Source of the DNA: Candidatus Pacearchaeota archaeon
Lineage (GTDB): Archaea; Nanobdellota; Nanobdellia; Pacearchaeales; GW2011-AR1
Assembly: GCA_017609755.1 (NCBI GenBank)
Contig: JAFCDI010000001.1
Location: 4,400-68,399 of the forward strand
Length of the DNA stretch: 64,000 nucleotides
Reading direction: 5' to 3'
Shown here: piece by piece, positions 19,466-59,504 of the stretch
Position numbering within the stretch: position 1 is the first letter of the stretch
Layout: each line of letters starts with the position of its first letter
The notes under the pieces: generated by a model
What the model saw: only the letters and a program-made list of their open reading frames with translations
Told to the model about the DNA's origin: nothing
Databases searched by the model: none
Position numbers and translations under genes: made by a program

Positions 19466-19504
19466 AGAAAACCTTTAAATAATCTTTCTCAATCAAATAT
19501 TCAT

Positions 19505-19596
19505 GAGGCTGTAGCTCAGCCTGGTTAGAGCACTACTCTGATAATAAAAGAAAATCAGATAGGTAGGGGTCCACGGTTCAAATCCGTGCAGCCTCA
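19505..19596 (+). tRNA. tRNA-Ile(GAU) with a 17-nt intron at the canonical 37/38 position
   Basis: Acceptor gaggctg/cagcctc, D-stem gctc/gagc, anticodon stem ctact/ggtag, loop ctGATaa, T-arm cacgg-ttcaaat-ccgtg. The intron atcag pairs with the anticodon-loop ctgat, giving a BHB. Confidence 0.8.
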
Positions 19597-19636
19597 TACT
19601 CATTAACTTTAAATACTAAAAAAATTCACGTTTAAC

Positions 19637-23417: not shown

Positions 23418-24506
23418 ATGAAAAAAACCTCTTTTATAGAAAATTATCTTTCTTTAGCAATCAAATTAGTTTTAATTCTTTCTATATTAAATGCTATTCA
23501 AAATCAGTTTTGGCATATAATGTCAACTAATCTTTTTTTGCTTATTTTGTTGTTTGTTCCTCAAATAATAAAAAAATATGAAATAAAAATTCCAAAAATC
23601 TTTGAATGGGCATTACTTATCTTTGTAATTCTTACTCTCTTTATTGGAAAAATAAGTGGAATAATTGCTCCAATATTTTTTGGTATTGCAATAGCTTTTA
23701 TTGGATTATTAATTTCGGCTATACTATATTCAAGTAATCAAATAAAAAAGAATACTTTTCTTATAACTCTGTTTTCCTTTAATTTTGCTGTTAGTTTTGG
23801 AGCATTACTAGAATTATTAAAATTTTTCCTAAAAATTCTAGCAGGACACTCTCTTTCAGGAGATTTATATTCTTATACAATGAGAAATATTTTATTTGTT
23901 ATAACTGGTGCAATAATTGCTGCAATGATTGGATTAGGATATATGAACGGATATTTAAAAATAAGAAAAATTGCAAAAGCCTTTATTAAATTAAATCCTA
24001 ATTTTCTAAAGAAAACTCATCAAGAAGAATTAACTGAATTAATTTCTAAAGGAGAAAATGAGAAATTAGAATTTAAATCAACATTAAGAACAAATCTGCA
24101 TACAAAAGAATTTGATAAGAAAATAGAATATACTATTCTCAAAACAATTGTTTCTTTTCTAAATACTAATGGAGGAACTCTACTTATAGGTATTTCAAAT
24201 AAAGGAGAAATTTTAGGAATACAGGCAGATAAATTTGAAAATGAAGATAAATTTGCTCTTCATCTAACAAACATAATAAAAGAAAAAATAGGTAAGAAAA
24301 ATTTGCATTTGATAAATCTAAGATTATTAAAAATTAAAGATAAATTTATAATGAGAGTTGATTGTAAAGAATCTTCTAAAGAAATTTTTCTAAAATCTTC
24401 TACAGGAGATGAAGAATTTTATATAAGAGTTGGACCTTCAAATAGTCAATTAGTTGGAAGTGAACTAATAGAGTATGTAAATAAAAAATTTAAAAATAAA
24501 AAATAA
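23418..24506 (+). CDS. membrane protein (about 5 TM) with a C-terminal Schlafen/AlbA_2-like putative DNA-binding domain
   Basis: N-terminal 200 aa hydrophobic. C-terminal EKLEFKSTLRTNLHT...ILKTIVSFLNTNGGTLLIGISNKGEILGI resembles the AlbA_2 (PF04326) core. Confidence 0.45.
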   Translation: MKKTSFIENYLSLAIKLVLILSILNAIQNQFWHIMSTNLFLLILLFVPQIIKKYEIKIPKIFEWALLIFVILTLFIGKISGIIAPIFFGIAIAFIGLLISAILYSSNQIKKNTFLITLFSFNFAVSFGALLELLKFFLKILAGHSLSGDLYSYTMRNILFVITGAIIAAMIGLGYMNGYLKIRKIAKAFIKLNPNFLKKTHQEELTELISKGENEKLEFKSTLRTNLHTKEFDKKIEYTILKTIVSFLNTNGGTLLIGISNKGEILGIQADKFENEDKFALHLTNIIKEKIGKKNLHLINLRLLKIKDKFIMRVDCKESSKEIFLKSSTGDEEFYIRVGPSNSQLVGSELIEYVNKKFKNKK

Positions 24507-25214: not shown

Positions 25215-27266
25215 ATGGAAGAGGAAGAAGAATTATCTCAGAATCCAGAAAAGGATGCAAGATCAAAAAAAGAAGAATTTTTAATAGAAGCAAAAAACTT
25301 TTTTGATTTTTATAAAAAAGAGTTGGGAGATTCTATTAGAAAAGCCAATAATGTGATTCATATTGATTTTCTCAAATTAACAGAATTTTCAAATAAGTTA
25401 TCTGATGAAATTCTTGCAAATCCAGAAGAGGCTCTTGGATTATTTGAATTAGCAATTGAAGAGTTAGGATTAATAAAAGATGCTAGAATAAGATTAATTG
25501 ATCTTCCAAAAAGTCAGGAAATAAAAGTAAGAAATATTCGTTCAAAACATCTAAATGAATTAATTGTCATTGAAGGAATAATTAGACAAGCATCTGATGT
25601 AAGGCCTCAAGTTGTAAATGCGAAATTTGAATGTCCTAGTTGTGGAATAGTTATAAGTGTTTTGCAAATAGAAAAAAAGTTTAGAGAACCTTCTAGATGT
25701 TCTTGTGGAAGAAAAGGAGGTTTTAAATTAATAAGTAAAGAAATGGTTGATACTCAAAGATTAGTTGTTGAAGAGTCTCCTGAATCTCTTTCAGGAGGAG
25801 AACAGCCAAAAAGAATAAATGTTTTTCTAAAAGAAGATTTAGTTGAACCTAAAATGGAAGAAAAAACAACTCCAGGAAGCAGAATAAAAATAATTGGAGT
25901 TTTAAAAGAAGTTCCAGTTCCTCTAAGTTCAGGAGGATTATCAACTAGATTTGAATTAGCTATTGAAGTAAATAATATAATTCCTTTAGAAGAAACTTTT
26001 GAAGAATTAGATATTAATGAAGAAGATGAAAGGCAAATACTAGAACTTGCTCAAGACCCTCAAATCTTTGAAAAACTTGCTAGAAGTATTACTCCAAGTG
26101 TTTGGGGATATGAAGAAATAAAAAGATCTCTTGTTTTACAATTATTTGGAGGAGTTAAAAAAGTTCATGCAGATGGACAAATAAATAGAGGAGATATTCA
26201 TATTCTTTTAATAGGTGATCCAGGAGTTGCAAAATCAGTAACATTAGGATTTATGGCTAAAATATCTCCAAAAGGAAGATATGTAGTTGGAAAATCAACT
26301 TCTGGAGCAGGATTAACAGCAACAGTAGTTAGAGACGAATATCTAAGAGGATGGAGTTTAGAAGCAGGAGCAATGGTTCTTTCTAATAAAGGACTGGTTT
26401 GTATAGATGAATTAGAAAAAATGGATCCTCAAGATAGAAGTGCAATGCATGAAGCAATGGAACAACAAACTGTAACAATAAGTAAAGCAAATGTTCAAGC
26501 AACATTAAGAGCAGAAACTTCTGTTTTAGCTGCAGCAAATCCAAAATTTGGAAGATTTGACCCTTATCAATCAATAGCTCAACAAATTGATATTCCTCCA
26601 ACTCTAATTAATAGATTTGATGTAATATTTACTTTAAGAGATATTCCTGATAAAATAAAAGATGAAAAAATAGCAAGTCATGTTTTATCAGAACATCGAA
26701 AAGAAGGAGAAGATATGTTAATTCCAAAAGATCTTTTTAGAAAATATGTAGCTTATTCAAAACAAAGAGTAAAACCTCAATTAAGTGAAGAAGCAGTAGA
26801 AGAATTAAAAAAATTCTATGTTGAATTAAGAAACAAACCAGTTTCCTCAGAAAGTGCAATGAGGCCTATTCCAATTTCTGCTAGACAATTGCAGGCTCTA
26901 ATTCGTATGGCTGAAGCATCTGCAAAAATAAAGTTAAATAATACTGTAAAAAAAGATGATGCAAAAGAAGCAATTGAATTAATGAAGTACTATTTAATGC
27001 AAGTAGGATATGATTATGAATCAAAAACATTTGATATTGACAAGATATATACTGGAATGACCACCTCAAAAAGAAATAAAGTTTTGACAGTTAGAGAAAC
27101 AATAACTGCTCTTAAAGAAAGAATAGGAGAATTAATTCCCATTGAAGAAATAGAAAAAGAATTAGAAGAAAAATTAACAAAAGAAGAAATAGAATACTCT
27201 ATAAATGAGCTAATAAAAAATAGTGTAATTTATCAACCAAGGCAAGGATATGTTCAAAAATTGTAA
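25215..27266 (+). CDS. mcm: MCM replicative helicase
   Basis: Zinc finger CPSCG...CSCG, Walker A GDPGVAKS, Walker B CIDELEKM, arginine finger SARQ, 683 aa. Confidence 0.9.
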   Translation: MEEEEELSQNPEKDARSKKEEFLIEAKNFFDFYKKELGDSIRKANNVIHIDFLKLTEFSNKLSDEILANPEEALGLFELAIEELGLIKDARIRLIDLPKSQEIKVRNIRSKHLNELIVIEGIIRQASDVRPQVVNAKFECPSCGIVISVLQIEKKFREPSRCSCGRKGGFKLISKEMVDTQRLVVEESPESLSGGEQPKRINVFLKEDLVEPKMEEKTTPGSRIKIIGVLKEVPVPLSSGGLSTRFELAIEVNNIIPLEETFEELDINEEDERQILELAQDPQIFEKLARSITPSVWGYEEIKRSLVLQLFGGVKKVHADGQINRGDIHILLIGDPGVAKSVTLGFMAKISPKGRYVVGKSTSGAGLTATVVRDEYLRGWSLEAGAMVLSNKGLVCIDELEKMDPQDRSAMHEAMEQQTVTISKANVQATLRAETSVLAAANPKFGRFDPYQSIAQQIDIPPTLINRFDVIFTLRDIPDKIKDEKIASHVLSEHRKEGEDMLIPKDLFRKYVAYSKQRVKPQLSEEAVEELKKFYVELRNKPVSSESAMRPIPISARQLQALIRMAEASAKIKLNNTVKKDDAKEAIELMKYYLMQVGYDYESKTFDIDKIYTGMTTSKRNKVLTVRETITALKERIGELIPIEEIEKELEEKLTKEEIEYSINELIKNSVIYQPRQGYVQKL

Positions 27267-30134: not shown

Positions 30135-30143
30135 GTAATAAAA

Positions 30144-30236
30144 CGTCCCGAGGAGGACTCGAACCTCCGACACCATGGTAACTGCGATTTTTTATAACCT
30201 AACAGCCATGCGCTCTACCAACTGAGCTATCGGGAC
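30144..30236 (-). tRNA. tRNA-Asn(GUU) with a 20-nt intron at the canonical position
   Basis: On minus strand: acceptor gtcccga/tcgggac, D gctc/gagc, anticodon stem catgg/ccatg, loop ctGTTa + intron ggttataaaaaatcgcagtt + a. Intron gcag pairs with ctgt (BHB). T-arm ggagg-ttcgagt-cctcc. Confidence 0.8.
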
Positions 30237-30314
30237 ATTATAATTCTAAATGCAAGATTCTTTTAAAGTTTACTATAGCATTAATTTTAAATAGATTCTT
30301 TTCTATTAAAAAAC

Positions 30315-35310: not shown

Positions 35311-36597
35311 TTAAGGATTAAATCTATTTGGAGTTCTTGGAAAAGGTATTGCATCTTTTATTGTATCAAAACCACATATCCATGCAACTAATCTCTCAAT
35401 TCCTAAACCAAATCCAGAATGAGGAACACTTCCATATCTTCTTGAATCAAGATACCAATTTGAAGCACCTAAATCTATTTTAGCTTTTTTTAATCTTTCA
35501 ATTATTTTATCTAAATTAGGTTCTCTCTGTGAACCATCAACTAATTCTCCAATTTTTGGAGCTAAAAGATTAAAATTAGTTCCTGTTCCAGGTTTTTTTA
35601 AATCTTCTCCATGATAAAATTTCAAAAGACTCAAAGGATAATTAGTTACAAAAACAAATGAATTTCCATAATATTTTGCTAAACTTCTCTCTTCTGCAGA
35701 ACCAAAATCATCTCCATATTTTATTTTATGTCCTTTAGTTCTTAACTTTTCAACAGCTTCTTTATAACTAATTTTCTTAAAGGGACTTTTAACTTTTTTA
35801 AGCATTGAAATGTCTGCTTCTAAAATTTCTAGCTCTTTTTTATTTTCTTTAAGAATTTTATCAATAACATAAACAATGCATTTTTCTGCTATATTCATAT
35901 CATCTTCTAAATTCATCCAAGCCCCTTCTAATTCATAATGCCAAAATTCTGTTACATGCCAAGGAGTTTTTGATTTTTCTGCTCTAAAACTAGGAGCAAT
36001 AGCATAAACTTTTTCAAAAGCATTTACAAAATTTTCAGCATAAAATTGCCAAGATTGAGTCATATAAGCTTTTTTTCCAAAATAATTTACTTCAAAAACT
36101 TCAGAACCTCCTTCACTCGCTGCTCCACTCATTGAAGGAGCCTGAATTTCAATAAATCCATTTTTATGTGAGAACTCATGCAAAGCAAATAAAACAGCTG
36201 AACGAATTTTCATGCTCGCAGTCATTTTTCTACTTCTCAGCCAGAGATGTCTTCTATCTCCTAAAAGTTCTTCATTTAAATCTTTTTGAATTGGAAATTC
36301 ATTTGAGAATCCAATAATATTTATTTTATCTACAGAAATTTCATATCCTGTAGGAGCTCTTTTATCTGCTTTTATTATTCCTTCAATTTCAACAGAAGTT
36401 TCTACTTGCAATTTATCAATTTCTTCCCAGTTTTCCTCAAATTTTTCTCTTTCTAAAACACATTGAATAATATCTGTAGAATCTCTTAAAATCAAAAATT
36501 TTCTTTTATTACTTCCTCTTTCTCTATAAATCCAACCACGCACAGCTATTTTTCCTTTTTTCTTTTCAATAGCCTCTGAAATAGAAATAAATTTCAT
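35311..36597 (-). CDS. asnS: asparaginyl-tRNA synthetase (class IIb)
   Basis: Motif 3 region YGSVPHSGFGLGIERLVAWICGFDTIKDAIPFPRTPNRFNP is AsnRS-type. N-terminal OB anticodon-binding domain. Confidence 0.8.
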   Translation of the reverse strand: MKFISISEAIEKKKGKIAVRGWIYRERGSNKRKFLILRDSTDIIQCVLEREKFEENWEEIDKLQVETSVEIEGIIKADKRAPTGYEISVDKINIIGFSNEFPIQKDLNEELLGDRRHLWLRSRKMTASMKIRSAVLFALHEFSHKNGFIEIQAPSMSGAASEGGSEVFEVNYFGKKAYMTQSWQFYAENFVNAFEKVYAIAPSFRAEKSKTPWHVTEFWHYELEGAWMNLEDDMNIAEKCIVYVIDKILKENKKELEILEADISMLKKVKSPFKKISYKEAVEKLRTKGHKIKYGDDFGSAEERSLAKYYGNSFVFVTNYPLSLLKFYHGEDLKKPGTGTNFNLLAPKIGELVDGSQREPNLDKIIERLKKAKIDLGASNWYLDSRRYGSVPHSGFGLGIERLVAWICGFDTIKDAIPFPRTPNRFNP

Positions 36598-37874
36598 GGT
36601 GTTAATCTCCTTCTATCTCTTGGAAATAAAGTTCCTTCTCTAATATTTTCAAGTCCAAGAATAGCATAAGTTAATCTTTCTAATCCAATGCTCCAACCTC
36701 CATGATAAGGCGCACCATATCTAAAAGCATCAATATACCATTTAAAATTTTCTGGATTTAATTTTTTAGATTTTAACTGATTAATTAAAATTTCTGGAAT
36801 ATGAACTCTCTGTCCTCCAGAAGAAATTTCAACACCTCCATACACTGCATCAAATCCTCCTGAAATTCCTTTTTTTTCTTCTTTAGGCCAAATATAAAAT
36901 GGCTTCATATCTATAGGCCAATCATATGTAAAAATAATTGTATTTGGAAAAAGAGCACATAGTTTTTTTTCTGCTTCTGGTTCAAAATCATCGCCTATTT
37001 TAATTTTAAATCCTTCTTTTGCAAGAATTTTTACTGCTTCTTCATAAGTTAAATATTTTACTTTAGGAATCTTTAAATTCACATCTAATAATTTTAATTC
37101 CTCTGAACAATTTTCAATAACTTCTTTAACAATATATTTTACTGCGCCTTCTAAATGTTTCATAACTTCAATATCATTAGCAAAGGCACATTCAATATCC
37201 ATTTGTCTTATTTCATTAATATGTTTAGAAGTGTCATGTTTTTCAGCTCTCCAAATTGTATTTGTTGAAAATACTTTTTCTAGAGAAATAGCCATTAATT
37301 GTTTATATAGTTGAGGACTTTGAGCTAAATATGCTTTTTGATTAAAATATTTTATTTCAAATAAATCAGTTCCTCCTTCTGTTGAAGTTGCAATAATTGC
37401 TGGAGGCTGAATTTCAATAAATTCTCTATCATAAAAATATTTTCTAAAAGCATTTATAATTGTTGATTGTACTCTAAAAATTGCTTTTATTTTAGGCTTT
37501 CTAACATCTAAACTTCGATAATCTAATCTTCTAGGCAAATCAGAAATAACTGTTTTTTCATTAACTTGAATAGGTAATTTTTCAGCTCTACTTAAAATTT
37601 TTATATCAGAAACTTCCACTTCAACATCTTTACGAACAAATTCTGCTTTGATATTTGCTTTTTTCACTTTTCCTTTTATCTCAATAACTGATTCAAGAGT
37701 TAAATTAGCAACTTTGTCTACTAAGTCCTTATTCTTTACAAGACATTGCACAATGCCAGAACTATCTCTTAAAAGAAAAAAAGACATTTTAGACATTGTT
37801 CTTGATTCATAAATCCATCCCTTTAAGAGAACTTCTGAATTTAATTTCAAATTTCTAACATAAGAGCGTTCCAT
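36594..37874 (-). CDS. aspS: aspartyl-tRNA synthetase (archaeal type, class IIb)
   Basis: YGAPYHGGWSIGLERLTYAILGLENIREGTLFPRDRRRLTP with the archaeal AspRS C-terminal FPRD..RLTP. Overlaps asnS by 4 nt. Confidence 0.8.
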   Translation of the reverse strand: MERSYVRNLKLNSEVLLKGWIYESRTMSKMSFFLLRDSSGIVQCLVKNKDLVDKVANLTLESVIEIKGKVKKANIKAEFVRKDVEVEVSDIKILSRAEKLPIQVNEKTVISDLPRRLDYRSLDVRKPKIKAIFRVQSTIINAFRKYFYDREFIEIQPPAIIATSTEGGTDLFEIKYFNQKAYLAQSPQLYKQLMAISLEKVFSTNTIWRAEKHDTSKHINEIRQMDIECAFANDIEVMKHLEGAVKYIVKEVIENCSEELKLLDVNLKIPKVKYLTYEEAVKILAKEGFKIKIGDDFEPEAEKKLCALFPNTIIFTYDWPIDMKPFYIWPKEEKKGISGGFDAVYGGVEISSGGQRVHIPEILINQLKSKKLNPENFKWYIDAFRYGAPYHGGWSIGLERLTYAILGLENIREGTLFPRDRRRLTP

Positions 37875-37908: not shown

Positions 37909-39342
37909 TTATTTCAAATATTTAGAGATTATTTCACTTATCTCTCTTCCACTAATCTTTCCTGCAAATTCTTTCATAATTAATCCCATATATGCTTTTT
38001 CAGAGAGTCCTGGTTTTTCTTTTATTAATTTAATTATTTTTTCCTCAATTTCAGATATTTCTAATTTTTCTTCTTCTGCTTCTTCTCCTTTTACAATTTT
38101 TTCTAAAACAAATTTAAGATTTCCTTCTGATATTTTTCCCTGTTTTACTTTTTGTAAAATAGAGTCAATATGTAAATCAAGAATTTCTTCTACTTCACTT
38201 AAATTCTTTTTATTTCTAGCAGCAATCTCTCTAGGATACATTAAAAGAATCTTTGCTATTAAAATTGGATTGTTAATAATTTTTAAAAGAGCTTTAAATT
38301 CTTCAAATTTGTTTTCCTTAAATAATAATTTAATCATATCTTTATTAAGTCCCATTTTATCCAAATCTTTTTCAATTTCTTTTTTTAATCTAGGAAGCTC
38401 TTTTTTTGCTTCATTAATAAGATTTCTAGAAATTTTTAATAAAGGTAAATCAGTTTCAGGATACATTCTAGAACTTCCTGGAAGAGGCCTCAAAAATTTT
38501 GAAGTTCCATCAGATAAAACATTTCTAACTTCCATTTCAGTAGGCTTTTTATCATCTGATAATTTTTTTTGTCTTTCAATTTCTTTTTCAATTGCTTGAA
38601 TAAATATATTCATATTTTGCATTCCTTTCATTTCAACTCTATTTTCTCCTCTAATGGAAAGATTCACATCTTGTCTAATAGTTCCTATTCCTCTTTTCAC
38701 TTTACAACTTCTAAGAATTTCTCCAATCTGCAATGCAGTTTCTTTTGCATGCTCTGCATTTTTAATTTGAGGAGCAGTAACAATTTCAACTAAAGGAATT
38801 CCCAATCTATCTAATCTATAAATTTCTCTTGTATCTGTCCTCTCAATAATTCTAGAAGAATCTTCTTCTAAAAATAAAGATTCAATATTTACTTTTCCCT
38901 GAAAAGTATTTACAAAACCATTCATAGCAATTAAAACAGTTCTCTGAAAACCAGAAGTATTAGAACCATCAATAACAGTCTTTCTCATAATTTGTGTAAG
39001 TGGAACAATTTTCATATTCATTAAAAGAGCTATTTGAATCGCTATTTTCAATGCTTCTGAATTTATTTCAGAAGGAGGCTCTTCATCTAATTCAACCAAA
39101 CAAGTAGTATCTTCATATCCTTGATAAACAAAATCCTTATTTAATTCTGCTTGATGCAGAGCAGCAATATCAATTTCTCCGCTTTCTCCTGGAACAGCGT
39201 GAAGTTTTCTTTTAATTTCAAAATCAGGTTTCTCTTTTCTCAAAACACTTGGACAAGCACAAAATAATTTAGAACTATCTAATTGTTGATGAATTTCCAA
39301 GCCTGCTTTAAATTGCAATTTTTTATAATCTATTTTAGACAT
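37909..39342 (-). CDS. gatE: Glu-tRNA(Gln) amidotransferase subunit E-like (GatB/GatE family, short 477-aa form)
   Basis: N-terminus GLEIHQQLDSSKLFCACPS resembles the GatE (HQQL) start. C-terminal GatB/YqeY-like helical domain. Lacks the insertion typical of roughly 620-aa GatE. Confidence 0.6.
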   Translation of the reverse strand: MSKIDYKKLQFKAGLEIHQQLDSSKLFCACPSVLRKEKPDFEIKRKLHAVPGESGEIDIAALHQAELNKDFVYQGYEDTTCLVELDEEPPSEINSEALKIAIQIALLMNMKIVPLTQIMRKTVIDGSNTSGFQRTVLIAMNGFVNTFQGKVNIESLFLEEDSSRIIERTDTREIYRLDRLGIPLVEIVTAPQIKNAEHAKETALQIGEILRSCKVKRGIGTIRQDVNLSIRGENRVEMKGMQNMNIFIQAIEKEIERQKKLSDDKKPTEMEVRNVLSDGTSKFLRPLPGSSRMYPETDLPLLKISRNLINEAKKELPRLKKEIEKDLDKMGLNKDMIKLLFKENKFEEFKALLKIINNPILIAKILLMYPREIAARNKKNLSEVEEILDLHIDSILQKVKQGKISEGNLKFVLEKIVKGEEAEEEKLEISEIEEKIIKLIKEKPGLSEKAYMGLIMKEFAGKISGREISEIISKYLK

Positions 39343-41389: not shown

Positions 41390-42646
41390 CTAAATTGTTA
41401 ATCTTTTATTAAATTCTCCAACAAAATTGTTCAGCATTCTCTCTCTAATTTTCCAATTCTTATGTCCCAAAACCCATCCTAATTTAACTAAAGCTGTTTC
41501 AGCAAGCATATCTTCTAAATAAATTACTCCTGTTTCTAATAATTCTCTTCCTGTAGAATAAACAAGAGGATCTAATCTTCCATAAATTGTTTGAGGAGCA
41601 GCACAGACAATTATTCCTTTTTTAATAACTTCTTTTAATTTTTTAGTCCAACTTAATCTAGATTCTTTAGTTGCAACATGCCCTAAACCCATCATTTCAA
41701 TTACAATTCCTCTATAATTATTTTTAACATAATAATCTAAAATATCTGGATTTTGTCCCGGATAAAATTTTAATAAAGCTACTTTTTCTTCAAAAAAAGT
41801 ATCTGCTTTCACTTTATTTTTATTTCTAATATTATAATCTGAAATTTTAGAAAGAGTATCTTTAGATATTTTTGCAAAAGGTTTTCCATTAACTACTTGA
41901 AATGCGTCTCTTTTAGAAGTGTGAAGTTTTCTTACTTTTACTCCAGGCATTGCATAACAAAAATCATCATTAGAAGATGCATGCCCTACAACCATAACTT
42001 CTGCAATATCTGAAATAGCTGCTAATGCAGCACATCTCAAATTTAAATTAGCATCTGAAGAAGCTCTATCAATACTTCTTTGAGAATAAGTTAAAACTAC
42101 TGGCTTGTTTACTTTTCCAAGAAAAAAAGAAAGTGCAGAAGAAACATAATGCAAACTATCTGTTCCAGAAGTAACAATCACTCCTTTAAGATGCATTTCA
42201 TTTAATAATTTTTCAACTTCCTTTGCAATTTTTTTCCAATCTTTAAAATCCATATTCTCAGAGCCTTTCATAAAAGGAATTCTTATTTTTGAAACATTAA
42301 CTTTTTCAAAAAGTTCTGGATAAATTTTAAACAATTCTTCAGGAGTATTTAACCATTTAACTGCTCCTGTCTTAGAATCTAGTTTAGAAGCAATTGTTCC
42401 TCCAGTAAGCACCATTGCTATATCTGGCTTCTTACTACTTTTTTCAATTTTCAAAGAAGTTTTCTTTTCTTTTGCTTTTTTTAAAGTTCTAATATAAGAA
42501 ATTTCTCTTTTATCAAATCCAATATTATATCCTGAATTCAATTTTAAAAGAATTTTTCCTTTTTCAGATTTAGGAGTTTCTAAAAGAACTCCTTCATAAA
42601 TAGTCTTCATTAAATGAATTTCTACATAATCTCCTGGATTTGCCAT
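41390..42646 (-). CDS. gatD: Glu-tRNA(Gln) amidotransferase subunit D (GatD, asparaginase-like)
   Basis: VLTGGTIAS asparaginase signature with an N-terminal extension. 418 aa. Confidence 0.75.
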   Translation of the reverse strand: MANPGDYVEIHLMKTIYEGVLLETPKSEKGKILLKLNSGYNIGFDKREISYIRTLKKAKEKKTSLKIEKSSKKPDIAMVLTGGTIASKLDSKTGAVKWLNTPEELFKIYPELFEKVNVSKIRIPFMKGSENMDFKDWKKIAKEVEKLLNEMHLKGVIVTSGTDSLHYVSSALSFFLGKVNKPVVLTYSQRSIDRASSDANLNLRCAALAAISDIAEVMVVGHASSNDDFCYAMPGVKVRKLHTSKRDAFQVVNGKPFAKISKDTLSKISDYNIRNKNKVKADTFFEEKVALLKFYPGQNPDILDYYVKNNYRGIVIEMMGLGHVATKESRLSWTKKLKEVIKKGIIVCAAPQTIYGRLDPLVYSTGRELLETGVIYLEDMLAETALVKLGWVLGHKNWKIRERMLNNFVGEFNKRLTI

Positions 42647-44559: not shown

Positions 44560-46008
44560 ATGACTAAAAAATCTAAAGAAGGATTAAGTGTAAAAAAACA
44601 AGAAAATTTTAGTGAATGGTTTAGTCAAATTCTAAAAAAGGCAGAATTAATAGATTTAAGATTAGATTTAAAGGGATTTATGGTTTATCGTCCCTTAGCT
44701 GCTCAAATAATTGAAAATATGTTTAAATTATATGAAGAAGAACTTCAAAAAAGAGGGCATGAATTAACTAGAATGCCTATGGTGATTCCAGAAGAAAATC
44801 TAAAAAAAGAGGCATCTCATGTTAAAGGATTTACTCCAGAAGTTTTTTGGTTAAAAGAAATAGGAAATGAAAAATTAGCATTGAGACCAACAAGTGAAAC
44901 ACTTTATACTCCAATGTTTAGTTTATGGATTAATAGTTACAGAGATTTGCCAATGAAACTATATCAAAAAGGTTCTGTTTTTCGTTTTGATACAAAAGCA
45001 ACTCGCCCATTAATCCGTACAAGAGAAATTATTTGGATAGAAACTCATAATGCTTTTGCAACAAAAGAAGAAGCTGAAAAACAGGTTCAAGAAGATATTG
45101 AAATAACAGAAAAAGTAATGCATCAAAAATTTGGAATTCCTTTTTTACCAATGAAAAGACCTTCTTGGGATAAATTTCCAGGAGCAGAATATACAATTGG
45201 TTCAGATGTTTTCATGCCAGATGGAAAATTAATTCAACAACCTTCAACGCATTTAATGGGACAAAAGTTCTCAAAAGTGTTTGAGGCAACCTTCAAAAAC
45301 TTCAATGAAAAAAAAGAATATTTGTGGACTACTGCTTATGGGCCTGCAATATCTAGAATTTTTGCTTCTATAATTGCTACTCATGGAGATGATTCTGGAT
45401 TAATTATTCCCTTTTGCATAGCTCCAACACAAGTAATTATAATTCCTATCTTTAATGCAAAAAACAAAAATGTTCTTCTCAAAGAAGCTAAAAAAATAAA
45501 GAAAAAATTAGAGAGTCTTGGAATAAGAAGTAAAATAGATGATAGTGAAAAAAGACCTGGAGAAAAATATCATATTTGGGAATTAAAAGGAGTTCCTTTT
45601 AGAATAGAAATTGGAGAAAAAGAATTAAATTCAAAAAAAGTAACTCTATATACTAGAGATTTAGGAAAAAAAGAATTCTTGAAAACTAAAGAAATTTCAA
45701 AATTAAAAAAACTTGGAAAAATTTTCGATGAAAGAATAAAAGAAAAAGCAGAAGAAATAATGAATGGAAGAATTTTAAATGCTAAAACAAAAGAAGAATT
45801 AAAAAAAATAATAAAAAACAAAAAAATTGCCAGAATTAATTTTTGTTCCACAAAAGAATCCGGAGAAAAATGTGCACAAATTATTGAAAAAGAAATTAAT
45901 GCAGAAATTAGAGGAAATCTAGCAAATAAAAAAGAAAAAGCAACAGGAAAATGTATTATTTGTGGAAAATCTGCAAAAGAAGTAGTCTATGTGGGAAAAA
46001 GCTACTAA
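44560..46008 (+). CDS. proS: prolyl-tRNA synthetase (archaeal/eukaryotic type)
   Basis: Class II motifs (FRFDTKATRPLIRTREIIWIETH), C-terminal zinc-binding CIICGK extension. 482 aa. Confidence 0.85.
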   Translation: MTKKSKEGLSVKKQENFSEWFSQILKKAELIDLRLDLKGFMVYRPLAAQIIENMFKLYEEELQKRGHELTRMPMVIPEENLKKEASHVKGFTPEVFWLKEIGNEKLALRPTSETLYTPMFSLWINSYRDLPMKLYQKGSVFRFDTKATRPLIRTREIIWIETHNAFATKEEAEKQVQEDIEITEKVMHQKFGIPFLPMKRPSWDKFPGAEYTIGSDVFMPDGKLIQQPSTHLMGQKFSKVFEATFKNFNEKKEYLWTTAYGPAISRIFASIIATHGDDSGLIIPFCIAPTQVIIIPIFNAKNKNVLLKEAKKIKKKLESLGIRSKIDDSEKRPGEKYHIWELKGVPFRIEIGEKELNSKKVTLYTRDLGKKEFLKTKEISKLKKLGKIFDERIKEKAEEIMNGRILNAKTKEELKKIIKNKKIARINFCSTKESGEKCAQIIEKEINAEIRGNLANKKEKATGKCIICGKSAKEVVYVGKSY

Positions 46009-46420: not shown

Positions 46421-47464
46421 CTATTTTAAAGCTTTAATTAATTCTTCTTGAAATCTATCCAGATTATTAAAACTTATTTGAATTCCAACCGCTGCTTCGT
46501 GTCCTCCTCCAGTAGCTCCTTCAAAATTTTCAAGTACTTTAAGAACAGGTTCTCTAATATTTTTTCCTCTTATAGATATTCCTACTCTAGAACCAGAAAT
46601 TTTTGCAACAGCAATTATTTTTTCAGGAAAAAGATATTTTAGCTTATTAGAAATTTCTGCACTCATACTTATATCTCCACTATATTTAAAAAAAATTATT
46701 TTTTCAAAAGTATTAGCTTGTTTTTTTGCTTTATCAATTAATTTTTGATATTTTGAGTATAGTTCTCTAAATCTTTTATGCATAGAGTGTGTCTGAGAAT
46801 TATCTTCTAAAACTTCATAAGGAGATTTAACTTTTCTAAGAAATTTCAACATATTAATTACATTAGTTGTTCTATCCATTAAAGCAAAACAAAAAATTCT
46901 TGCAATTTTTCCAATTTGAGAATTATAATATATTTCAAAAGCATCTTCAGAACTCACAGATAAATCTGGAAAATCCTTTTTAAAATTCAAATAATATTTT
47001 GGAACAAATTTATCAGAAATACATCCAACAATTGCTATCCATCTATCTTCTTTTTTATTTGATATTTGATAGCAAAGAGCAGTAACAGGCTCATTTGATT
47101 TTTCTGTATTAAAAACAGGATTATAATAATTTACAAATTTAGGAATTTTTTTTCTATCTATATTATGATGGTCTATCCAAACAACTGGAAGATTAATCTC
47201 TCTTACTCTCTTAAAAAATCCTTCAGAAACCTCTGGCTGATCTAAAATAAAAAGATAATCTGGCTTTAATTCATTAATTTTTCTAAAATAATCTTCTGTT
47301 AATTCTGGAGAAGTTTTTATTGGAAAACCTTTTCCTTTATCAATATATCTCTGTAACAAAAGAAAAGAACAAAGCCCATCATTATCATTATCAAAAAAAA
47401 ATAAAGGATTCTGTGCTTTTTCTAGATGAACTCTAATTTCTTTAATCTGATTTGCTGTCAACAT
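46421..47464 (-). CDS. DHH/DHHA1 phosphoesterase (NrnA/Pde2-like, candidate c-di-AMP / pApA phosphodiesterase)
   Basis: DNDNDGLCSF (DHH motif I), WIDHHN (DHH), C-terminal GATGGGHEAAVG (DHHA1 GGGH). 347 aa. Starts 1 nt after the disA stop. Confidence 0.75.
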   Translation of the reverse strand: MLTANQIKEIRVHLEKAQNPLFFFDNDNDGLCSFLLLQRYIDKGKGFPIKTSPELTEDYFRKINELKPDYLFILDQPEVSEGFFKRVREINLPVVWIDHHNIDRKKIPKFVNYYNPVFNTEKSNEPVTALCYQISNKKEDRWIAIVGCISDKFVPKYYLNFKKDFPDLSVSSEDAFEIYYNSQIGKIARIFCFALMDRTTNVINMLKFLRKVKSPYEVLEDNSQTHSMHKRFRELYSKYQKLIDKAKKQANTFEKIIFFKYSGDISMSAEISNKLKYLFPEKIIAVAKISGSRVGISIRGKNIREPVLKVLENFEGATGGGHEAAVGIQISFNNLDRFQEELIKALK

Positions 47465-48550
47465 TTAAATTTTCTTTCCCATTCTTATTTTCTCTCTTAA
47501 ATTGTATATTTCTTCTTTAAAAAAAGTTACCAATCCTTCGTTTCCCAAAACTTCCAAGAGTTCTTCATCACTTGCCAAAAGCACTTTATCTAATCTTTTA
47601 AATTTCTTGATTAAGGAAGTTATATGTCTCTCTAAAAGATTTGTTTTATTTAGAATTCTCTTTCCTTTTGGAGAGATGGGTTTGTCATGAAGCTCTTCAA
47701 AAAGCATTCTAGAAATATTCATTGGTTCTAATAAAAAATCAAAATCCATTCTACTCAAAAGTTTAGATGCAAAAGAAGGATTAGAAGAAAAATAATCTTT
47801 AAGAAGCATTTTCTCTTCTTTATCTATATTTTTTATTGCTTCCTTTAATCCCATATTAATCACCATTCCTTCTTTTCCTAGTTCTGCCAAATATCTTTTA
47901 ATAATTCCTGAAATTCTTTTAATAATTTCTAACCTTTGTAAAACAGAAGAAACATCATTTATTGTGACTATTCTTTTCAACTCCAATGCATTTAGATTGT
48001 CTAAAACATCATTAAATATTTCTTTCTGTCTTTCAAGAGTTTGTAAAGTTTCTGTTGCTCTTCTAATAATTTCAGAACTTTCGTCTAATTCATAAGAAGT
48101 ATCTTTATAATACAAAGTTATTTTGTTTTTTCTTTCAGAAACAGCAACAACAAGAGTTTGAGCTTGTTTTGATGTTCTATCTGCTGCCTTATGTCTTGTT
48201 CCAGTTTCTTTTGTGCTTATGCTTGAACTTGGAGAAAGAAGAGTATTTGCATGAAGAATCTTTTTTAAATCTCCAGATAAAATAATTGCTCCATCCATTT
48301 TAGCTAATTCAACTAATCTTTGAGGACTAAATTTGGAATTGATTCTAAATCCTTTTTCAACAATTTTTTCTAAATTTCCATTATCTGCTACAATAAGTGC
48401 ACCCATTCTAGCTCTTAAAAGATCATTAAGAGCAGTTCGTATTGAAGTTCCAGGCGCAAACATTTTAAGAACATCTATAAAATCTTTTTCTTTTATCTTT
48501 TTCTTTTTAGAAGTTTTAGAACTTTTTTTAGTTGATTTATTTTTCTCCAT
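47465..48550 (-). CDS. disA: DisA-type diadenylate cyclase (c-di-AMP synthase, DAC domain plus C-terminal helical/HhH region)
   Basis: RMGALIVADNG...FSPQRLVELAKMDGAIILSGD...ETGTRHKAADRTSKQAQTLVVAVSERKNKITLYY is the DisA_N/DAC signature (DGA, TRH(R/K)AA). 361 aa. Confidence 0.8.
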   Translation of the reverse strand: MEKNKSTKKSSKTSKKKKIKEKDFIDVLKMFAPGTSIRTALNDLLRARMGALIVADNGNLEKIVEKGFRINSKFSPQRLVELAKMDGAIILSGDLKKILHANTLLSPSSSISTKETGTRHKAADRTSKQAQTLVVAVSERKNKITLYYKDTSYELDESSEIIRRATETLQTLERQKEIFNDVLDNLNALELKRIVTINDVSSVLQRLEIIKRISGIIKRYLAELGKEGMVINMGLKEAIKNIDKEEKMLLKDYFSSNPSFASKLLSRMDFDFLLEPMNISRMLFEELHDKPISPKGKRILNKTNLLERHITSLIKKFKRLDKVLLASDEELLEVLGNEGLVTFFKEEIYNLREKIRMGKKI

Positions 48551-48605
48551 AGAAAAAAGAAAGGCTAAGAATATATAAGTTTTTAGTAGAAATAATTCTT
48601 AAAAA

Positions 48606-49502
48606 TTATTTTATAGAAGAGTAGATTAAAGGGAGCGCTATTGTTGCATCGCAAGAAACATCTACAAAATTTGCTTGACTTTTCATTTTTCCCCAAGAGA
48701 TTCCTTCTCTTAAAGGTGCTCCAGAACTTCCTCCTGGTTCAGGCCTGTCTGTTGTTATTTGTATTCCAAAATCAGCTCCTTTTGAAAATTGTAAAGATTG
48801 TTGAATGAAATTTTTTGGCAATCCTCCTCCCACATAAATCACTCCAGTTTTTTTTGATTTCCAAGAAAAATCAATTATTTCATTCATATCTCCAAAAACA
48901 TCAATATTTGTTTCTCCTCTTCCTGCTGCAATTCTTCCCCACATCATAAGCCCTAGTCCTGAATCTGCAATACCTGGACAAAAAATCGGTATTTTTTTTT
49001 TATAACATTTCTTAAGAATTCCTCCTCCAGGAGAAAGTTCTCCTAACTTCCATAAAAAATCCTTAATATTGTCACATTTTCTTAAAATGTCATAATTTTC
49101 ACTAAAAAAATCCTCTAATTTTTCATAAACTGAATTTTTCATAAGAATGTTGTAGATTCTATCAATTCCTTCTTTATTTAGCTTTTCATCATTCTCAAAC
49201 TCACTTCCTAAATAATGTTTCTCTCCTAAATCTTCAATTAAATCATGAGTAAGAGTTGCTCCTGTTGTAACAAAAACATCCACTCTATCTAATAAATCAA
49301 GAATAACTGATTTCATTCCTGCTGGAACCATTGCACCTGCAATTCCCAAAAAAATCTTACAGTTTCCATCCTCAAACATTTGCTTCATTATAGAACTTGC
49401 TTCAGCTATTTTTCCTGCTCCAAATCCAACTCCTGAAAACCCTCTAACTAAATCAGAGACTTTCATAGAATTTTCTATTTTTAAATGTTTAACTTCTTTC
49501 AT
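48606..49502 (-). CDS. dys: deoxyhypusine synthase
   Basis: FLGIAGAMVPAGM...VDVFVTTGATLTHD pattern. 298 aa. Confidence 0.75.
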   Translation of the reverse strand: MKEVKHLKIENSMKVSDLVRGFSGVGFGAGKIAEASSIMKQMFEDGNCKIFLGIAGAMVPAGMKSVILDLLDRVDVFVTTGATLTHDLIEDLGEKHYLGSEFENDEKLNKEGIDRIYNILMKNSVYEKLEDFFSENYDILRKCDNIKDFLWKLGELSPGGGILKKCYKKKIPIFCPGIADSGLGLMMWGRIAAGRGETNIDVFGDMNEIIDFSWKSKKTGVIYVGGGLPKNFIQQSLQFSKGADFGIQITTDRPEPGGSSGAPLREGISWGKMKSQANFVDVSCDATIALPLIYSSIK

Positions 49503-49569: not shown

Positions 49570-49806
49570 ATGAAAAGATTTGGAAAAAGCATAATAAAAA
49601 GATTTGGAAAAGGAAAATTAAGAGGATATTCTGTAATACAACTTATAGAAACATCTTCAATAACTATTCACTTTGATGAAATAGAAAATAGAGCTTTTAT
49701 AGACATTTTTAGTTGCAAAAAATTTGATGAAAAAAAAGCAGAAGAATTTTCAAGAGAATTTTTCAAAGCAGAAAAATCTAAAATAAAAACTTTATTCAGG
49801 AATTAA
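49570..49806 (+). CDS. S-adenosylmethionine decarboxylase-like protein (SpeH-type), N-terminally short
   Basis: LIETSSITIHFDEIENRAFIDIFSCK resembles the E-S autoprocessing site and H...F.C motif of AdoMetDC. Only 78 aa, with an in-frame stop directly upstream. Confidence 0.4.
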   Translation: MKRFGKSIIKRFGKGKLRGYSVIQLIETSSITIHFDEIENRAFIDIFSCKKFDEKKAEEFSREFFKAEKSKIKTLFRN

Positions 49807-53352: not shown

Positions 53353-55053
53353 ATGATAAATAGAAAAATATTAATAGAAAAATATCTAAAATTCTTTAAA
53401 TCAAAAAACCACAAAATTATTCCTAATGCTCCTCTAATTCCTGAAAATGATCCAAGTGCTCTTTTCATTTCAGCGGGAATGCATCCTCTAGTTCCTTTTT
53501 TACTAGGACAAAAACATCCATTAGGAAAAAGATTAGTTAGCATTCAAAAATGCATAAGAACAACAGATATAGAAGAGGTAGGAGATAATTGCCACCATAC
53601 TTTTATTGAAATGCTTGGAAATTGGAGCCTTGGAGATTATTGGAAAAAGAATTCAATTAAATATAGTTTAGAATTTTTAACAGAAATTCTAAAAATTCCA
53701 AAAAAAGAAATAAAAGTTACTTGTTTTAAAGGAGATAAAAATTCTCCAAAAGATATTGAATCCGAAAAGATTTGGAAAGATTTAGGAATTAAAAAAATAG
53801 AATTCTTAGGAAAAAAGGAAAATTGGTGGGGACCAGTAGGAAAGACTGGGCCTTGTGGCCCAGACACAGAAATATTTGTTAAGAATATAGAAATATGGAA
53901 CAATGTTTTTATGGAATACTTTCAAAATAAAGAAGGAAAACTAGAATTTCTTAAGCAAAAAAATGTAGATACTGGAATGGGTTTAGAAAGAACTTTAGCA
54001 ATTTTAAAGGGTTATGAAGACAACTATCTAACAGAAATATGGATGCCTATTATAAAAAAAATAGAAGAAATCTCTAAAAGAAAATACTCTGAAAATAAAG
54101 AAATTACTAAGATTATGAGAATAATTGCAGACCATATAAAGGCCTCAGTATTTATACTTGCAGAAGGAATTGTTCCAGGAAATTCAGAACAGAGTTATGT
54201 TTTAAGAAGATTAATTAGACGTGCAGTTAGATATGGAAAAAAATTAAATATGAAGAATTTCACAATTTCAATAGCAGAACCAATTTTTAAGATATTTGAG
54301 AATTATGAAGAACTAAAAACAAACAAAAAGAAAATTCTAGAAGAATTAAAAAAAGAAGAAGAAAGATTTTCAAGAACATTAGAAAAAGGTTTAAATAGGT
54401 TTCAGAAATTTGCAAAAGATAAAAATGAACTTTCTGGAAAACAATGTTTTCTTTTATATCAGAGTTTTGGATTTCCTATTGAAATGATTGAAGAAGAGTG
54501 TCAAAAACAAAAAATTAAAATCTCTAAAAAAGATTTTGAAAAAGCAAATAAGGAACATCAAAAAATTTCTAGAACAGCAACAGCAGGAAGATTCAAATCT
54601 GGTTTAGCGGATTCTTCAGAGTCAACAACAAAATTGCATACAGCAGCGCATTTATTATTACAAGCTCTTAAGATAATACTCAAAAAGAATTCAATAGTTC
54701 AAAAAGGTTCAAACATAACTCCAGAAAGATTGAGATTAGATTTTTCTTTTTCTAGAAAATTAACAAAAGAAGAAATAGAAAAAATAGAAAATTTAGTAAA
54801 TGCTCAAATTCAAAATTCTTGCGAGGTAATTAGAAAAGAAATGCCTTTAAAAGAAGCAAAGAAACAAGGCGCTTGTGGAATCTTTGATAAAAAATACGGA
54901 GATAAAGTTTCAGTTTATTCAATAGGGAATTTTTCAAAAGAAATTTGTACAGGCCCTCATGTAAAAAATACTTGTGAACTAGGAAAATTTAAAATAATAA
55001 AAGAAGAGTCAGTTGGAGCAGGAATAAGGCGTATTAAAGCAATATTAGAATAA
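53353..55053 (+). CDS. alaS: alanyl-tRNA synthetase, short form (catalytic plus editing domains, no C-terminal C-Ala domain)
   Basis: NDPSALFISAGMHP, QKCIRTTDIEEVGD..HHTFIEMLGNWSLGDYWK. Editing-domain HTAAHLLLQALK (HxxxH) and ICTGPHV (CxxxH). 566 aa. Confidence 0.8.
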   Translation: MINRKILIEKYLKFFKSKNHKIIPNAPLIPENDPSALFISAGMHPLVPFLLGQKHPLGKRLVSIQKCIRTTDIEEVGDNCHHTFIEMLGNWSLGDYWKKNSIKYSLEFLTEILKIPKKEIKVTCFKGDKNSPKDIESEKIWKDLGIKKIEFLGKKENWWGPVGKTGPCGPDTEIFVKNIEIWNNVFMEYFQNKEGKLEFLKQKNVDTGMGLERTLAILKGYEDNYLTEIWMPIIKKIEEISKRKYSENKEITKIMRIIADHIKASVFILAEGIVPGNSEQSYVLRRLIRRAVRYGKKLNMKNFTISIAEPIFKIFENYEELKTNKKKILEELKKEEERFSRTLEKGLNRFQKFAKDKNELSGKQCFLLYQSFGFPIEMIEEECQKQKIKISKKDFEKANKEHQKISRTATAGRFKSGLADSSESTTKLHTAAHLLLQALKIILKKNSIVQKGSNITPERLRLDFSFSRKLTKEEIEKIENLVNAQIQNSCEVIRKEMPLKEAKKQGACGIFDKKYGDKVSVYSIGNFSKEICTGPHVKNTCELGKFKIIKEESVGAGIRRIKAILE

Positions 55054-58964: not shown

Positions 58965-59504
58965 TTGTCTTATACTAATAATAGCATGAAAAAGATAATT
59001 GCTCATTTAACTGGACAAATTGTTTCAAGTAATACTTCTGAGGCAAAATTTCTTCATAAAAAAAGTAGTTTCGGAGAAATAATAGATGATAAAATCCAGT
59101 ATTCTTTAGCAGAAACTCTATATTTATTAGAAAAAGGAAAAATGGAGATTAATTTCCGTTCAAAAAAACTCTCAACAAAAGAACTACTAAATAAATTTAG
59201 AAGAATTGATAAAAGAATACAACTAAAATATCCTGTATTTAGAAATTTAAGAGAAAAAGGTTATTTAGTAAAAACCGCTTTAAAATTTGGAGCAGATTTT
59301 AGAGTTTATGAAAAAGGAGCAAAAATAGGAAAACAGCATGCAAAATGGATTGTGTTTGTTGATTCTGAGACAAATAAAATCACTTGGCATGAATTTTCTG
59401 CAAAAAATAGAGTTGCTCATTCAACAAGAAAAAATTTACTTCTAGCAATAGTAGACGAAGAAAACAGCATTACTTATTATGAAATTAGATGGTTAAAGCC
59501 TTAG
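58965..59504 (+). CDS. endA: tRNA-splicing endonuclease (EndA, homotetramer-type about 180 aa)
   Basis: LKFGADFRVYEKG...HAKWIVFV...RVAHSTRKNLLLAIV carries the catalytic Tyr/His/Lys region of the archaeal splicing endonuclease. Confidence 0.8.
   Translation: MSYTNNSMKKIIAHLTGQIVSSNTSEAKFLHKKSSFGEIIDDKIQYSLAETLYLLEKGKMEINFRSKKLSTKELLNKFRRIDKRIQLKYPVFRNLREKGYLVKTALKFGADFRVYEKGAKIGKQHAKWIVFVDSETNKITWHEFSAKNRVAHSTRKNLLLAIVDEENSITYYEIRWLKP

Follow-up and report, generated by a model that had tools for sequence, protein, structure and literature searches.

A DisA-family diadenylate cyclase gene adjoining a gene for a RecJ-clade DHH/DHHA1 phosphoesterase in Pacearchaeota and Woesearchaeota

The DisA and DHH genes and their surroundings

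The stretch of DNA analyzed here (the window; 64,000 nt of contig JAFCDI010000001.1 from a Candidatus Pacearchaeota archaeon, all coordinates being positions in this window) carries on its minus strand two open reading frames (ORFs) arranged head-to-tail: the first (47465-48550) codes for a DisA-family protein of 361 aa, the second (46421-47464) for a protein of 347 aa with DHH and DHHA1 domains, termed mini-RecJ in the following (Table 1). By direct reading of the sequence, the DisA stop codon TAA (47467-47465) abuts the ATG of the DHH gene (47464-47462); as a promoter cannot fit into a spacer of zero, both genes are predicted to be co-transcribed. Judged by this geometry they form one two-gene operon, as had been proposed in the original prediction made from this sequence, and the DHH/DHHA1 partner has kept every catalytic motif. 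All motifs quoted there are present: MDGAI, ETGTRHKAADRTSKQ and VVAVSERKNKITLYY in DisA; DNDNDG, DHH and GGGH in the DHH protein. A TATA-like box, TTATATAT, is positioned 21-28 nt 5' of the DisA ATG inside the 55-nt spacer behind the deoxyhypusine synthase gene; it may represent the promoter of a leaderless or near-leaderless transcript spanning DisA and DHH.

The window is very AT-rich (24-30% G+C), and the DisA/DHH pair matches the remainder with 27-29% G+C. An archaeal-type deoxyhypusine synthase, TFE, tRNA-intron endonuclease, MCM and Nre are encoded, and close homologues of both proteins carry the names Candidatus Pacearchaeota, Woesearchaeota or Nanoarchaeota. The genes local to the pair code for aminoacyl-tRNA synthetases, GatD/E, TFE, a rhomboid protease, a permease and deoxyhypusine synthase, whereas the replication and repair genes (MCM, 25215-27266; DNA ligase, 21297-23000; Nre, 1918-3120; topoisomerase, 63-1574) are all located at least 19 kb away. 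The replication/repair-rich context that had been assumed for the pair is thus replaced by one of translation and housekeeping. No further DHH paralogue was found within the window.

In 80 related loci the slot of the DHH gene is conserved and marked by deoxyhypusine synthase and prolyl-tRNA synthetase (ProRS), irrespective of the presence of DisA. A short S-adenosylmethionine-decarboxylase-like ORF (49570-49806, 78 aa), for which the Pfam match covers no more than the C-terminal two-thirds of the model, is situated beside the deoxyhypusine synthase gene of the window, and in DisA-less relatives (loci L006, L013, L034, L068, L070, L166) an ornithine/arginine-decarboxylase-like gene takes the position of DisA. 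According to these neighbors, the DisA slot would belong to a polyamine/hypusine cluster.

Table 1. Features of the DisA/DHH locus (window positions).
Feature	Position	Strand	Basis or remark
DisA-family diadenylate cyclase gene, 361 aa, archaeal clade lacking helix-hairpin-helix (HhH) signatures	47465..48550	-	NF010009; alignment to 3c1y
DAC (cyclase) domain, residues 39-150	48101..48436	-	Pfam PF02457, E 9.5e-28
DGA motif in DAC domain	48287-48295	-	residues D86, G87, A88
R-H-K at the RHR place in DAC domain	48188-48196	-	residues R119, H120, K121
DisA helical linker domain, residues 155-283	47702..48088	-	Pfam PF10635, E 1.2e-30
DisA C-terminal domain, ~residues 290-361	47468..47683	-	aligns to DisA domain 3; both HhH signatures gone
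DHH/DHHA1 phosphoesterase gene, 347 aa, RecJ-clade mini-RecJ	46421..47464	-	Pfam, NCBIfam, fold
DHH catalytic domain, ~residues 1-220; D25/D27/D29, D75, D151	46805..47464	-	132-member alignment
D98-H99-H100 motif of DHH domain	47165-47173	-	invariant in 132 members
DHHA1 domain, residues 256-347; S297-x-R299	46424..46699	-	Pfam PF02272, 33 bits
G319-G-G-H322 motif of DHHA1 domain	46499-46510	-	132-member alignment
TAA-ATG junction, DisA stop / DHH start	47462..47467	-	sequence reading
TATA-like box TTATATAT, putative archaeal promoter	48571..48578	-	sequence reading, inference
Deoxyhypusine synthase gene, upstream same-strand neighbor of DisA	48606..49502	-	Pfam PF01916, E 4.2e-91
ProRS gene	44560-46008	+	conserved-slot marker, convergent to DHH gene

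An archaeal clade of DisA proteins

By family scores and by alignment, the first gene codes for a DisA-family diadenylate cyclase, with cyclase activity predicted from these features: the DAC domain (96.6 bits, cut-off 27), the DisA linker (106.6 bits) and the NCBIfam equivalog NF010009 (331.8 bits, cut-off 201) all scored above their cut-offs, in agreement with the DisA_N/DAC identity assigned originally, and residues 17-348 aligned to Thermotoga maritima DisA (3c1y) with an E-value of 5.7e-57. Bacterial DisA proteins (T. maritima TM0200/3c1y; B. subtilis, Mycobacterium) have in common with it the three-part layout over this end-to-end alignment, the DAC domain with DGA and T/I-R-H, the linker and a score above the DisA equivalog cut-off. 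The catalytic DGA was found intact on alignment; the RHR that had been expected reads R-H-K, a deviation missed in the original prediction, with R119 and H120 retained. D86, G87, A88, R119, H120 and K121 are invariant across 32 archaeal DisA homologues. The exchange of Thr for Ile in the 'GTRH' of some archaeal DisA proteins was considered as the mark of a dead cyclase, a concern that was dropped because many RadA-linked bacterial DisA share the Ile.

A DisA-profile scan of metagenome contigs yielded archaeal-type and bacterial loci for a side-by-side comparison, in which 49 archaeal-type DisA sequences (window included) were set against 27 bacterial ones; the trees of DisA (100 bootstraps) and of the DHH protein were calculated by neighbor-joining on the sampled loci. 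Archaeal and bacterial DisA were split in 100/100 bootstraps, and mean identity amounted to 47% inside the archaeal group compared with 38% between archaeal and bacterial proteins, which indicates that the archaeal clade is old and diversified. Its members differ from the bacterial proteins in three respects. Firstly, the residue following R-H is K, Q, T or M across the archaeal clade but R in most bacterial DisA (K in two of those sampled). Secondly, both HhH hairpins are gone: the first reads 'T-NLLE' throughout the archaeal clade instead of the bacterial 'K[IV]PR[LI]P' ('PRLP'), the second 'xNEG' ('GNEG') instead of 'V[ED]GIGE.RA' ('GIGE'); Pfam HHH, HHH_2 or HHH_5 matches were obtained for none of seven archaeal but for three of three bacterial DisA proteins (bacterial E-values 1e-5 to 1e-6), and the window protein was without a significant Pfam HHH match (HHH_2, E 0.23). 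Thirdly, the operon partner is different: in bacteria, RadA/Sms is encoded directly upstream of DisA (radA-disA) in 26 of 27 loci, an arrangement not seen at any archaeal locus; most archaeal loci instead have a DHH enzyme as the downstream partner (34 of 41 informative ones), and such a neighbor is absent beside bacterial DisA (0/27). Thus, judged by sequence, the DisA of Pace- and Woesearchaeota constitutes an old, diversified archaeal clade in which the cyclase and linker domains have been kept, while the HhH signature and RadA as a partner have been lost. As a result of this loss, a DNA-scanning role, which had been invoked from bacterial DisA, cannot be presumed for the archaeal clade.

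Already for the PIN-series metagenome-assembled genomes (MAGs) from Crystal Geyser, if not earlier, National Center for Biotechnology Information (NCBI) records labeled members of this clade as DisA. A basal archaeal sub-clade is recognizable by the signature '[IV]KGWRILSKT-SL' (loci L120, L123, L127, L128, L131, L132); it is without a downstream DHH gene wherever the available sequence permits viewing, and its neighbors are replication factor C (RFC) subunits (L132) or uncharacterized ORFs, some of them probably membrane proteins as judged by eye (L123, L127), so that its operon logic is unlike that of the main clade. Two public sequences bear bacterial names: the DHH locus L079 is titled 'Candidatus Omnitrophota bacterium' and the DisA protein P0090 'Bacilli bacterium'. 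Both show 58-67% identity to Pacearchaeota proteins and have archaeal neighbors, and they therefore probably stem from mis-binned contigs in public MAGs.

The DHH/DHHA1 protein and its affiliation to the RecJ clade

In the Pfam analysis the DHHA1 domain of mini-RecJ scored 33.0 bits (cut-off 25.9), whereas the DHH domain with 26.5 bits remained slightly below its cut-off of 28.1. All these scores, those of DisA included, greatly exceed chance level. The mini-RecJ family counts 808 cluster representatives (E<=1e-3), almost all of which have 330-360 aa. In the 132-member alignment D27, D29, G30, D75, D98, H99, H100, G320, G321 and H322 are invariant and D151, S297, R299 and G319 nearly so; the catalytic motifs of the DHH family being intact in all these relatives, mini-RecJ is predicted to be an active phosphoesterase.

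All 132 relatives matched the NCBIfam model RecJ_archaeal (best E 1.9e-25), 129 the bacterial recJ model, 116 RecJ_Meth, 31 GAN and only seven NrnA (best E 2.5e-4), although no curated NCBIfam cut-off was reached by any of them. The window protein itself scored 37.9 bits against the 360 required for RecJ_archaeal and 16.8 against 850 for GAN, and gave no NrnA NCBIfam match at E<0.01. When the family profile was compared with PDB sequences, the best match was the RecJ-Cdc45 protein of Methanothermobacter (7bhi, 8.7e-19), followed by MjRecJ2, PfuRecJ and GAN; archaeal RecJ proteins ranged from 1e-19 to 1e-14, bacterial RecJ was found at 1e-9, and NrnA-type chains (3e-9 to 0.075) ranked under all RecJ types. 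A structural model calculated with AlphaFold (AF2) from the 132-sequence alignment reached a pLDDT (predicted local distance difference test) value of 97 (the single-sequence model with 37.7 was unusable). Foldseek placed RecJ-Cdc45 bound to single-stranded DNA first (E 2.8e-17), followed by an archaeal pAp (3'-phosphoadenosine 5'-phosphate) phosphatase (1.3e-15) and Pde2/NrnA (1e-10); since these scores depend on the inter-domain angle, the fold by itself leaves the substrate undecided.

The archaeal RecJ family (structures of T. kodakarensis, 5ghr; P. furiosus, 5x4h; M. thermautotrophicus, 7bhi; MjRecJ2, 6tvv; HAN-type PF0399, 5yh1) comprises the nearest relatives of mini-RecJ by profile and fold, with active DHH and DHHA1 domains. 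In contrast to these RecJ/GAN chains of ~430-480 aa, mini-RecJ is ~90-130 residues shorter, chiefly between motif IV and DHHA1 (the segment from the DHH core to DHHA1, i.e. the region of the GINS-binding insert, has ~120 residues compared with ~200 in 7bhi), is without oligonucleotide-binding (OB) fold or Zn-ribbon additions, and attains about a tenth of the curated cut-off score. The gene neighborhood differs as well: GAN is typically found with S15, S3Ae and Pcc1 (PMC3307487), mini-RecJ beside DisA, deoxyhypusine synthase and ProRS.

The known DHH-type phosphodiesterases for cyclic di-AMP (c-di-AMP) and its linear product pApA sit in the NrnA/GdpP clade. With the stand-alone phosphodiesterases and nanoRNases of the NrnA clade (Pde2/NrnA of S. 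aureus, 8iu7; DhhP of B. burgdorferi, 9r7o; TmPDE of T. maritima, 5o1u; CnpB/Rv2837c of M. tuberculosis, 5jju; B. subtilis NrnA) mini-RecJ shares the two-domain architecture, the size class (~310-350 aa) and the motifs DxD, D, DHH, D and GGGH, and it is plausible by analogy that a chemistry on short 5'-phosphorylated substrates is common to both; the profile affinity is weak (best 3e-9; Rv2837c 0.075). To our knowledge, the NrnA-clade enzymes of model organisms are not encoded beside disA. The DHH-type pAp phosphatase of Methanothermococcus thermolithotrophicus (8a8k), an enzyme of sulfate assimilation without link to a cyclase, exhibited low similarity to mini-RecJ (profile E 1.2e-7). According to these comparisons the DHH protein is a member of the RecJ clade by ancestry, with a build like that of the small-substrate DHH enzymes. 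The likeness to NrnA/Pde2 claimed in the original prediction consequently applies to two-domain make-up, size and motifs and not to sequence affiliation (132/132 RecJ_archaeal versus 7/132 NrnA).

Conservation of the gene pair

Seen from the cyclase, a DHH gene follows downstream on the same strand in 34 of the 41 informative archaeal-type DisA loci, which answers the question of co-occurrence in relatives raised by the original prediction. The pairing reaches lineages with no more than 40-49% DisA and 41-50% DHH identity, in which the synteny with deoxyhypusine synthase and ProRS is mostly dissolved (L105, L110, L113, L114, L116, L119, L121, L125). Among the informative crown-group loci, DHH follows DisA in 16 of 17: DisA is rarely relocated, and species without it at the locus most likely lack DisA altogether. 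Of the seven exceptions lacking a downstream DHH gene, six fall into the basal sub-clade of archaeal DisA or occupy deep positions in the tree; one of these six sequences carries the name Pacearchaeota, another the name Woesearchaeota. In some relatives, genes without relation to the pair intervene between the two partners: an opposite-strand nucleotidyltransferase together with a DUF86-type (HEPN) protein, resembling a toxin-antitoxin pair as judged by eye (L092, 1070-1878), a small lipoprotein-like ORF (L001, 1941-2339; L083, 1756-2139) and an Lrp/AsnC-like regulator (L053, 4550-5509).

Seen from the DHH gene, a different picture emerged. A relative was found in 526 GTDB species genomes, and the best 80 loci were analyzed: DisA was encoded directly upstream (gap <200 nt; 2-8 nt in 11 loci) in 31 and nearby (gap 492-1450 nt) in three, was missing in 38 although 1.2 kb or more of the upstream region was available, and eight loci were uninformative owing to too short an upstream sequence. 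In the DisA-less species the gene order is deoxyhypusine synthase - X - DHH - convergent ProRS, with X being nothing or the decarboxylase-like gene mentioned above. The DHH gene is thus a resident core gene of these archaea with a job independent of DisA, and the DisA-DHH linkage is real but one-sided. On the DHH tree, whose deep DisA-positive branches were sampled via DisA and hence are biased, the presence of DisA changes ~16 times compared with 30 changes for shuffled labels, suggesting that DisA has been lost repeatedly.

Proposed function and competing explanations

Since the cyclase almost never occurs without DHH downstream whereas DHH thrives without the cyclase, the pair fits the picture of a resident housekeeping hydrolase with a tethered accessory cyclase. 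Our tentative interpretation, held with slightly less than even confidence, is that the cyclase is tied to this hydrolase, which would clear c-di-AMP and/or pApA. We infer a cyclase activity, a DHH substrate and a make-and-break coupling of the following kind: DisA would condense two ATP to c-di-AMP; the DHH enzyme, made from the transcript of DisA, would hence always be present beside the cyclase; its everyday substrates would probably be short 5'-phosphorylated oligonucleotides or nucleotides, and it would additionally hydrolyze c-di-AMP and/or linear pApA to AMP and thereby restrain this 'essential poison'. Producers of c-di-AMP need a phosphodiesterase, and most of the known ones are DHH/DHHA1 enzymes (PMC10249747, PMC12699388); as the messenger is toxic in excess, make-and-break would be the simplest mechanism. 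The loss of the HhH signatures counts against DNA scanning and in favor of a plain cyclase. According to the original prediction, two observations would in combination have spoken against such a module, a grouping of the DHH protein with RecJ and a lacking linkage to disA. Only the former was made; with the linkage conserved, make-and-break can be upheld in a modified version.

Several findings weigh against clearance of the messenger by mini-RecJ. On the side of the cyclase, the RHR place reads RHK, with R119 and H120 retained. On the side of its partner, the sequence places it in the RecJ and not the NrnA/GdpP clade, and we know of no RecJ-clade enzyme that has been shown to cleave c-di-AMP. 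In the window, Rfam yielded three tRNAs only and no c-di-AMP riboswitch, nor was a c-di-AMP receptor found among the window genes. The DHH gene is present without DisA at the locus in 38 of 72 informative species, and five deep members of its family (28-33% identity) are found in varied housekeeping contexts with no DisA nearby. Mean identity of the DHH proteins is 62.1% with and 62.5% without DisA, the catalytic residues vary in neither set, and DisA-specific residues of note were not detected among them (a single column differs, 86% versus 32%); any role of the DHH enzyme in c-di-AMP turnover would in consequence be secondary. Finally, the adjacency of ProRS is likewise conserved: gene order is sticky in this group, which weakens all arguments from linkage.

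As the main alternative, in our view rather unlikely, mini-RecJ might be a single-strand DNA or RNA exonuclease or a Cdc45/GAN-like replisome factor that does not degrade the messenger. DisA would then be wired to it as bacterial DisA is to RadA/Sms, by which the bacterial cyclase is inhibited, with the nuclease replacing the lost DNA/RNA contact and either modulating the cyclase output or being modulated by c-di-AMP. Consistent with such a nucleic-acid partner are the RecJ_archaeal (132/132) and recJ (129/132) matches, the leading positions of 7bhi, MjRecJ2, PfuRecJ and GAN in the PDB profile comparison and of ssDNA-bound RecJ-Cdc45 in Foldseek, the DisA-independent core character of the DHH gene, which fits a replication or repair factor, and the DNA-repair protein that is the operon partner of DisA in 26 of 27 bacterial loci; moreover, every archaeon has been argued to need a RecJ/Cdc45 homologue (Makarova et al., PMC3307487). 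However, mini-RecJ falls far under the RecJ/GAN cut-offs (37.9 versus 360 bits), is ~90-130 residues short at the GINS-binding insert, is without the OB fold and is encoded outside the S15/S3Ae/Pcc1 neighborhood typical of GAN (PMC3307487), and the loss of the DNA-binding motifs of DisA would be odd for a DNA-surveillance module.

The pair might also be functionally uncoupled, an explanation regarded as improbable: DisA would have been inserted once, long ago, upstream of a highly expressed housekeeping gene, then inherited and repeatedly lost, so that the adjacency would merely reflect slow gene-order change and promoter sharing. The varying content of the slot (DisA, the ornithine/arginine-decarboxylase-like gene or nothing), the at least equally constant adjacency of the unrelated ProRS, the ~16 flips of DisA on the DHH tree, the indifference of DHH conservation to DisA, and the toxin-antitoxin pair, lipoprotein or Lrp-type regulator sometimes intervening between the partners would all be in accordance with it. 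On the other hand, the pair persists in deep lineages in which the deoxyhypusine synthase/ProRS synteny is mostly gone, crown DisA scarcely ever occurs apart from DHH (16/17 informative loci paired), both genes share one strand and are separated by hardly any spacer, and it would be a notable coincidence that the partner stems from the very superfamily that provides most c-di-AMP hydrolases.

Horizontal acquisition of a self-contained bacterial cassette of the NrnA/Pde2 type, as originally proposed, would agree with DisA being elsewhere a bacterial family and with the DHH-plus-DHHA1 make-up equal to that of NrnA/Pde2, but is contradicted and very improbable indeed: the DHH gene is resident in DisA-less relatives (38/72), is never found beside bacterial DisA (0/27) and belongs to the RecJ instead of the NrnA clade, the G+C content (27-29%) is that of the window, and archaeal and bacterial DisA are split in 100/100 bootstraps at 38% identity. 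A recent transfer is ruled out by base composition and clade depth.

Relation to archaeal c-di-AMP signaling

The archaeal c-di-AMP systems described so far use DacZ (PMC6741144, PMC12699388), as stated in the original prediction. DAC-domain proteins have been placed in euryarchaeotes (PMC10249747), and according to a 2025 paper dacZ is absent from DPANN and c-di-AMP is phylogenetically restricted within Euryarchaeota (PMC12699388). As far as the description of the DacZ system in this paper extends, the general scheme of an archaeal cyclase and a DHH/DHHA1 hydrolase is shared with the locus studied here. The components are different: DacZ combines a pyruvate-kinase-C and a DAC domain, whereas the window cyclase is of the DisA type and matches the DacZ model with an E-value of 2.4e-4 only; the DacZ-system phosphodiesterase is described there as an NrnA-clade enzyme carrying a TrkA_N domain, neither of which applies to mini-RecJ; and its genes are not described there as an operon, while those of DisA and DHH adjoin.

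In the literature search no paper was found that ties DisA, any DAC or 'DNA integrity scanning' to DPANN, although a mention in print is possible. The gene calls as such are ordinary and have already been named by automatic annotation; the new features are those of the clade and its linkage, i.e. an HhH-less, RadA-less DisA clade with RH[K/Q/T/M], a RecJ-clade partner, and a conserved, asymmetric operon in DPANN. The window locus and its hundreds of relatives thus add a non-DacZ class of cyclase in Pace- and Woesearchaeota, a group that stands outside c-di-AMP signaling in current reviews. That they represent a second, unrecognized archaeal c-di-AMP system, in which DisA would have given up both DNA binding and RadA in exchange for a RecJ/Cdc45-like partner acting either as the first RecJ-clade c-di-AMP/pApA phosphodiesterase or as a nucleic-acid-sensing regulator of the cyclase, is a possibility that we regard as doubtful. 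If it were true, these ultra-small symbiotic cells would have the messenger coupled to replication or to the turnover of RNA. With a hydrolase as the partner, RecJ-clade DHH enzymes would join those that turn over c-di-AMP; with a nuclease, the RadA-DisA checkpoint of bacteria would have its archaeal equivalent in the pair. The cyclase is dispensed with in about half of the sampled species, and this presence/absence polymorphism provides a natural comparative experiment; both proteins are small, soluble and open to direct expression and assay.

Other genes of the window

Two of the three tRNA genes of the window (19504-19597, plus strand; 30143-30237, minus strand; 93-95 nt) received no anticodon from ARAGORN but were scored as tRNA by Rfam. 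This disagreement, together with the presence of a tRNA-intron endonuclease gene (58965-59504), indicates that both probably contain introns. Two tandem paralogues of class-II synthetases of the Asp/Asn/Lys type (35311-36597 and 36594-37874, minus strand) overlap by 4 nt; GatB/GatE-family and GatD genes (37909-39342, 41390-42646) beside them complete a cluster for indirect aminoacylation. The alanyl-tRNA synthetase (53353-55053, plus strand, 566 aa) comprises the catalytic and second additional domains without the C-terminal C-Ala, a fold related to DHHA1; it may be split or truncated, as in Nanoarchaeum. A 362-aa protein with Schlafen/AlbA_2 domain is encoded on the plus strand (23418-24506) between the DNA ligase and MCM (25215-27266) genes.

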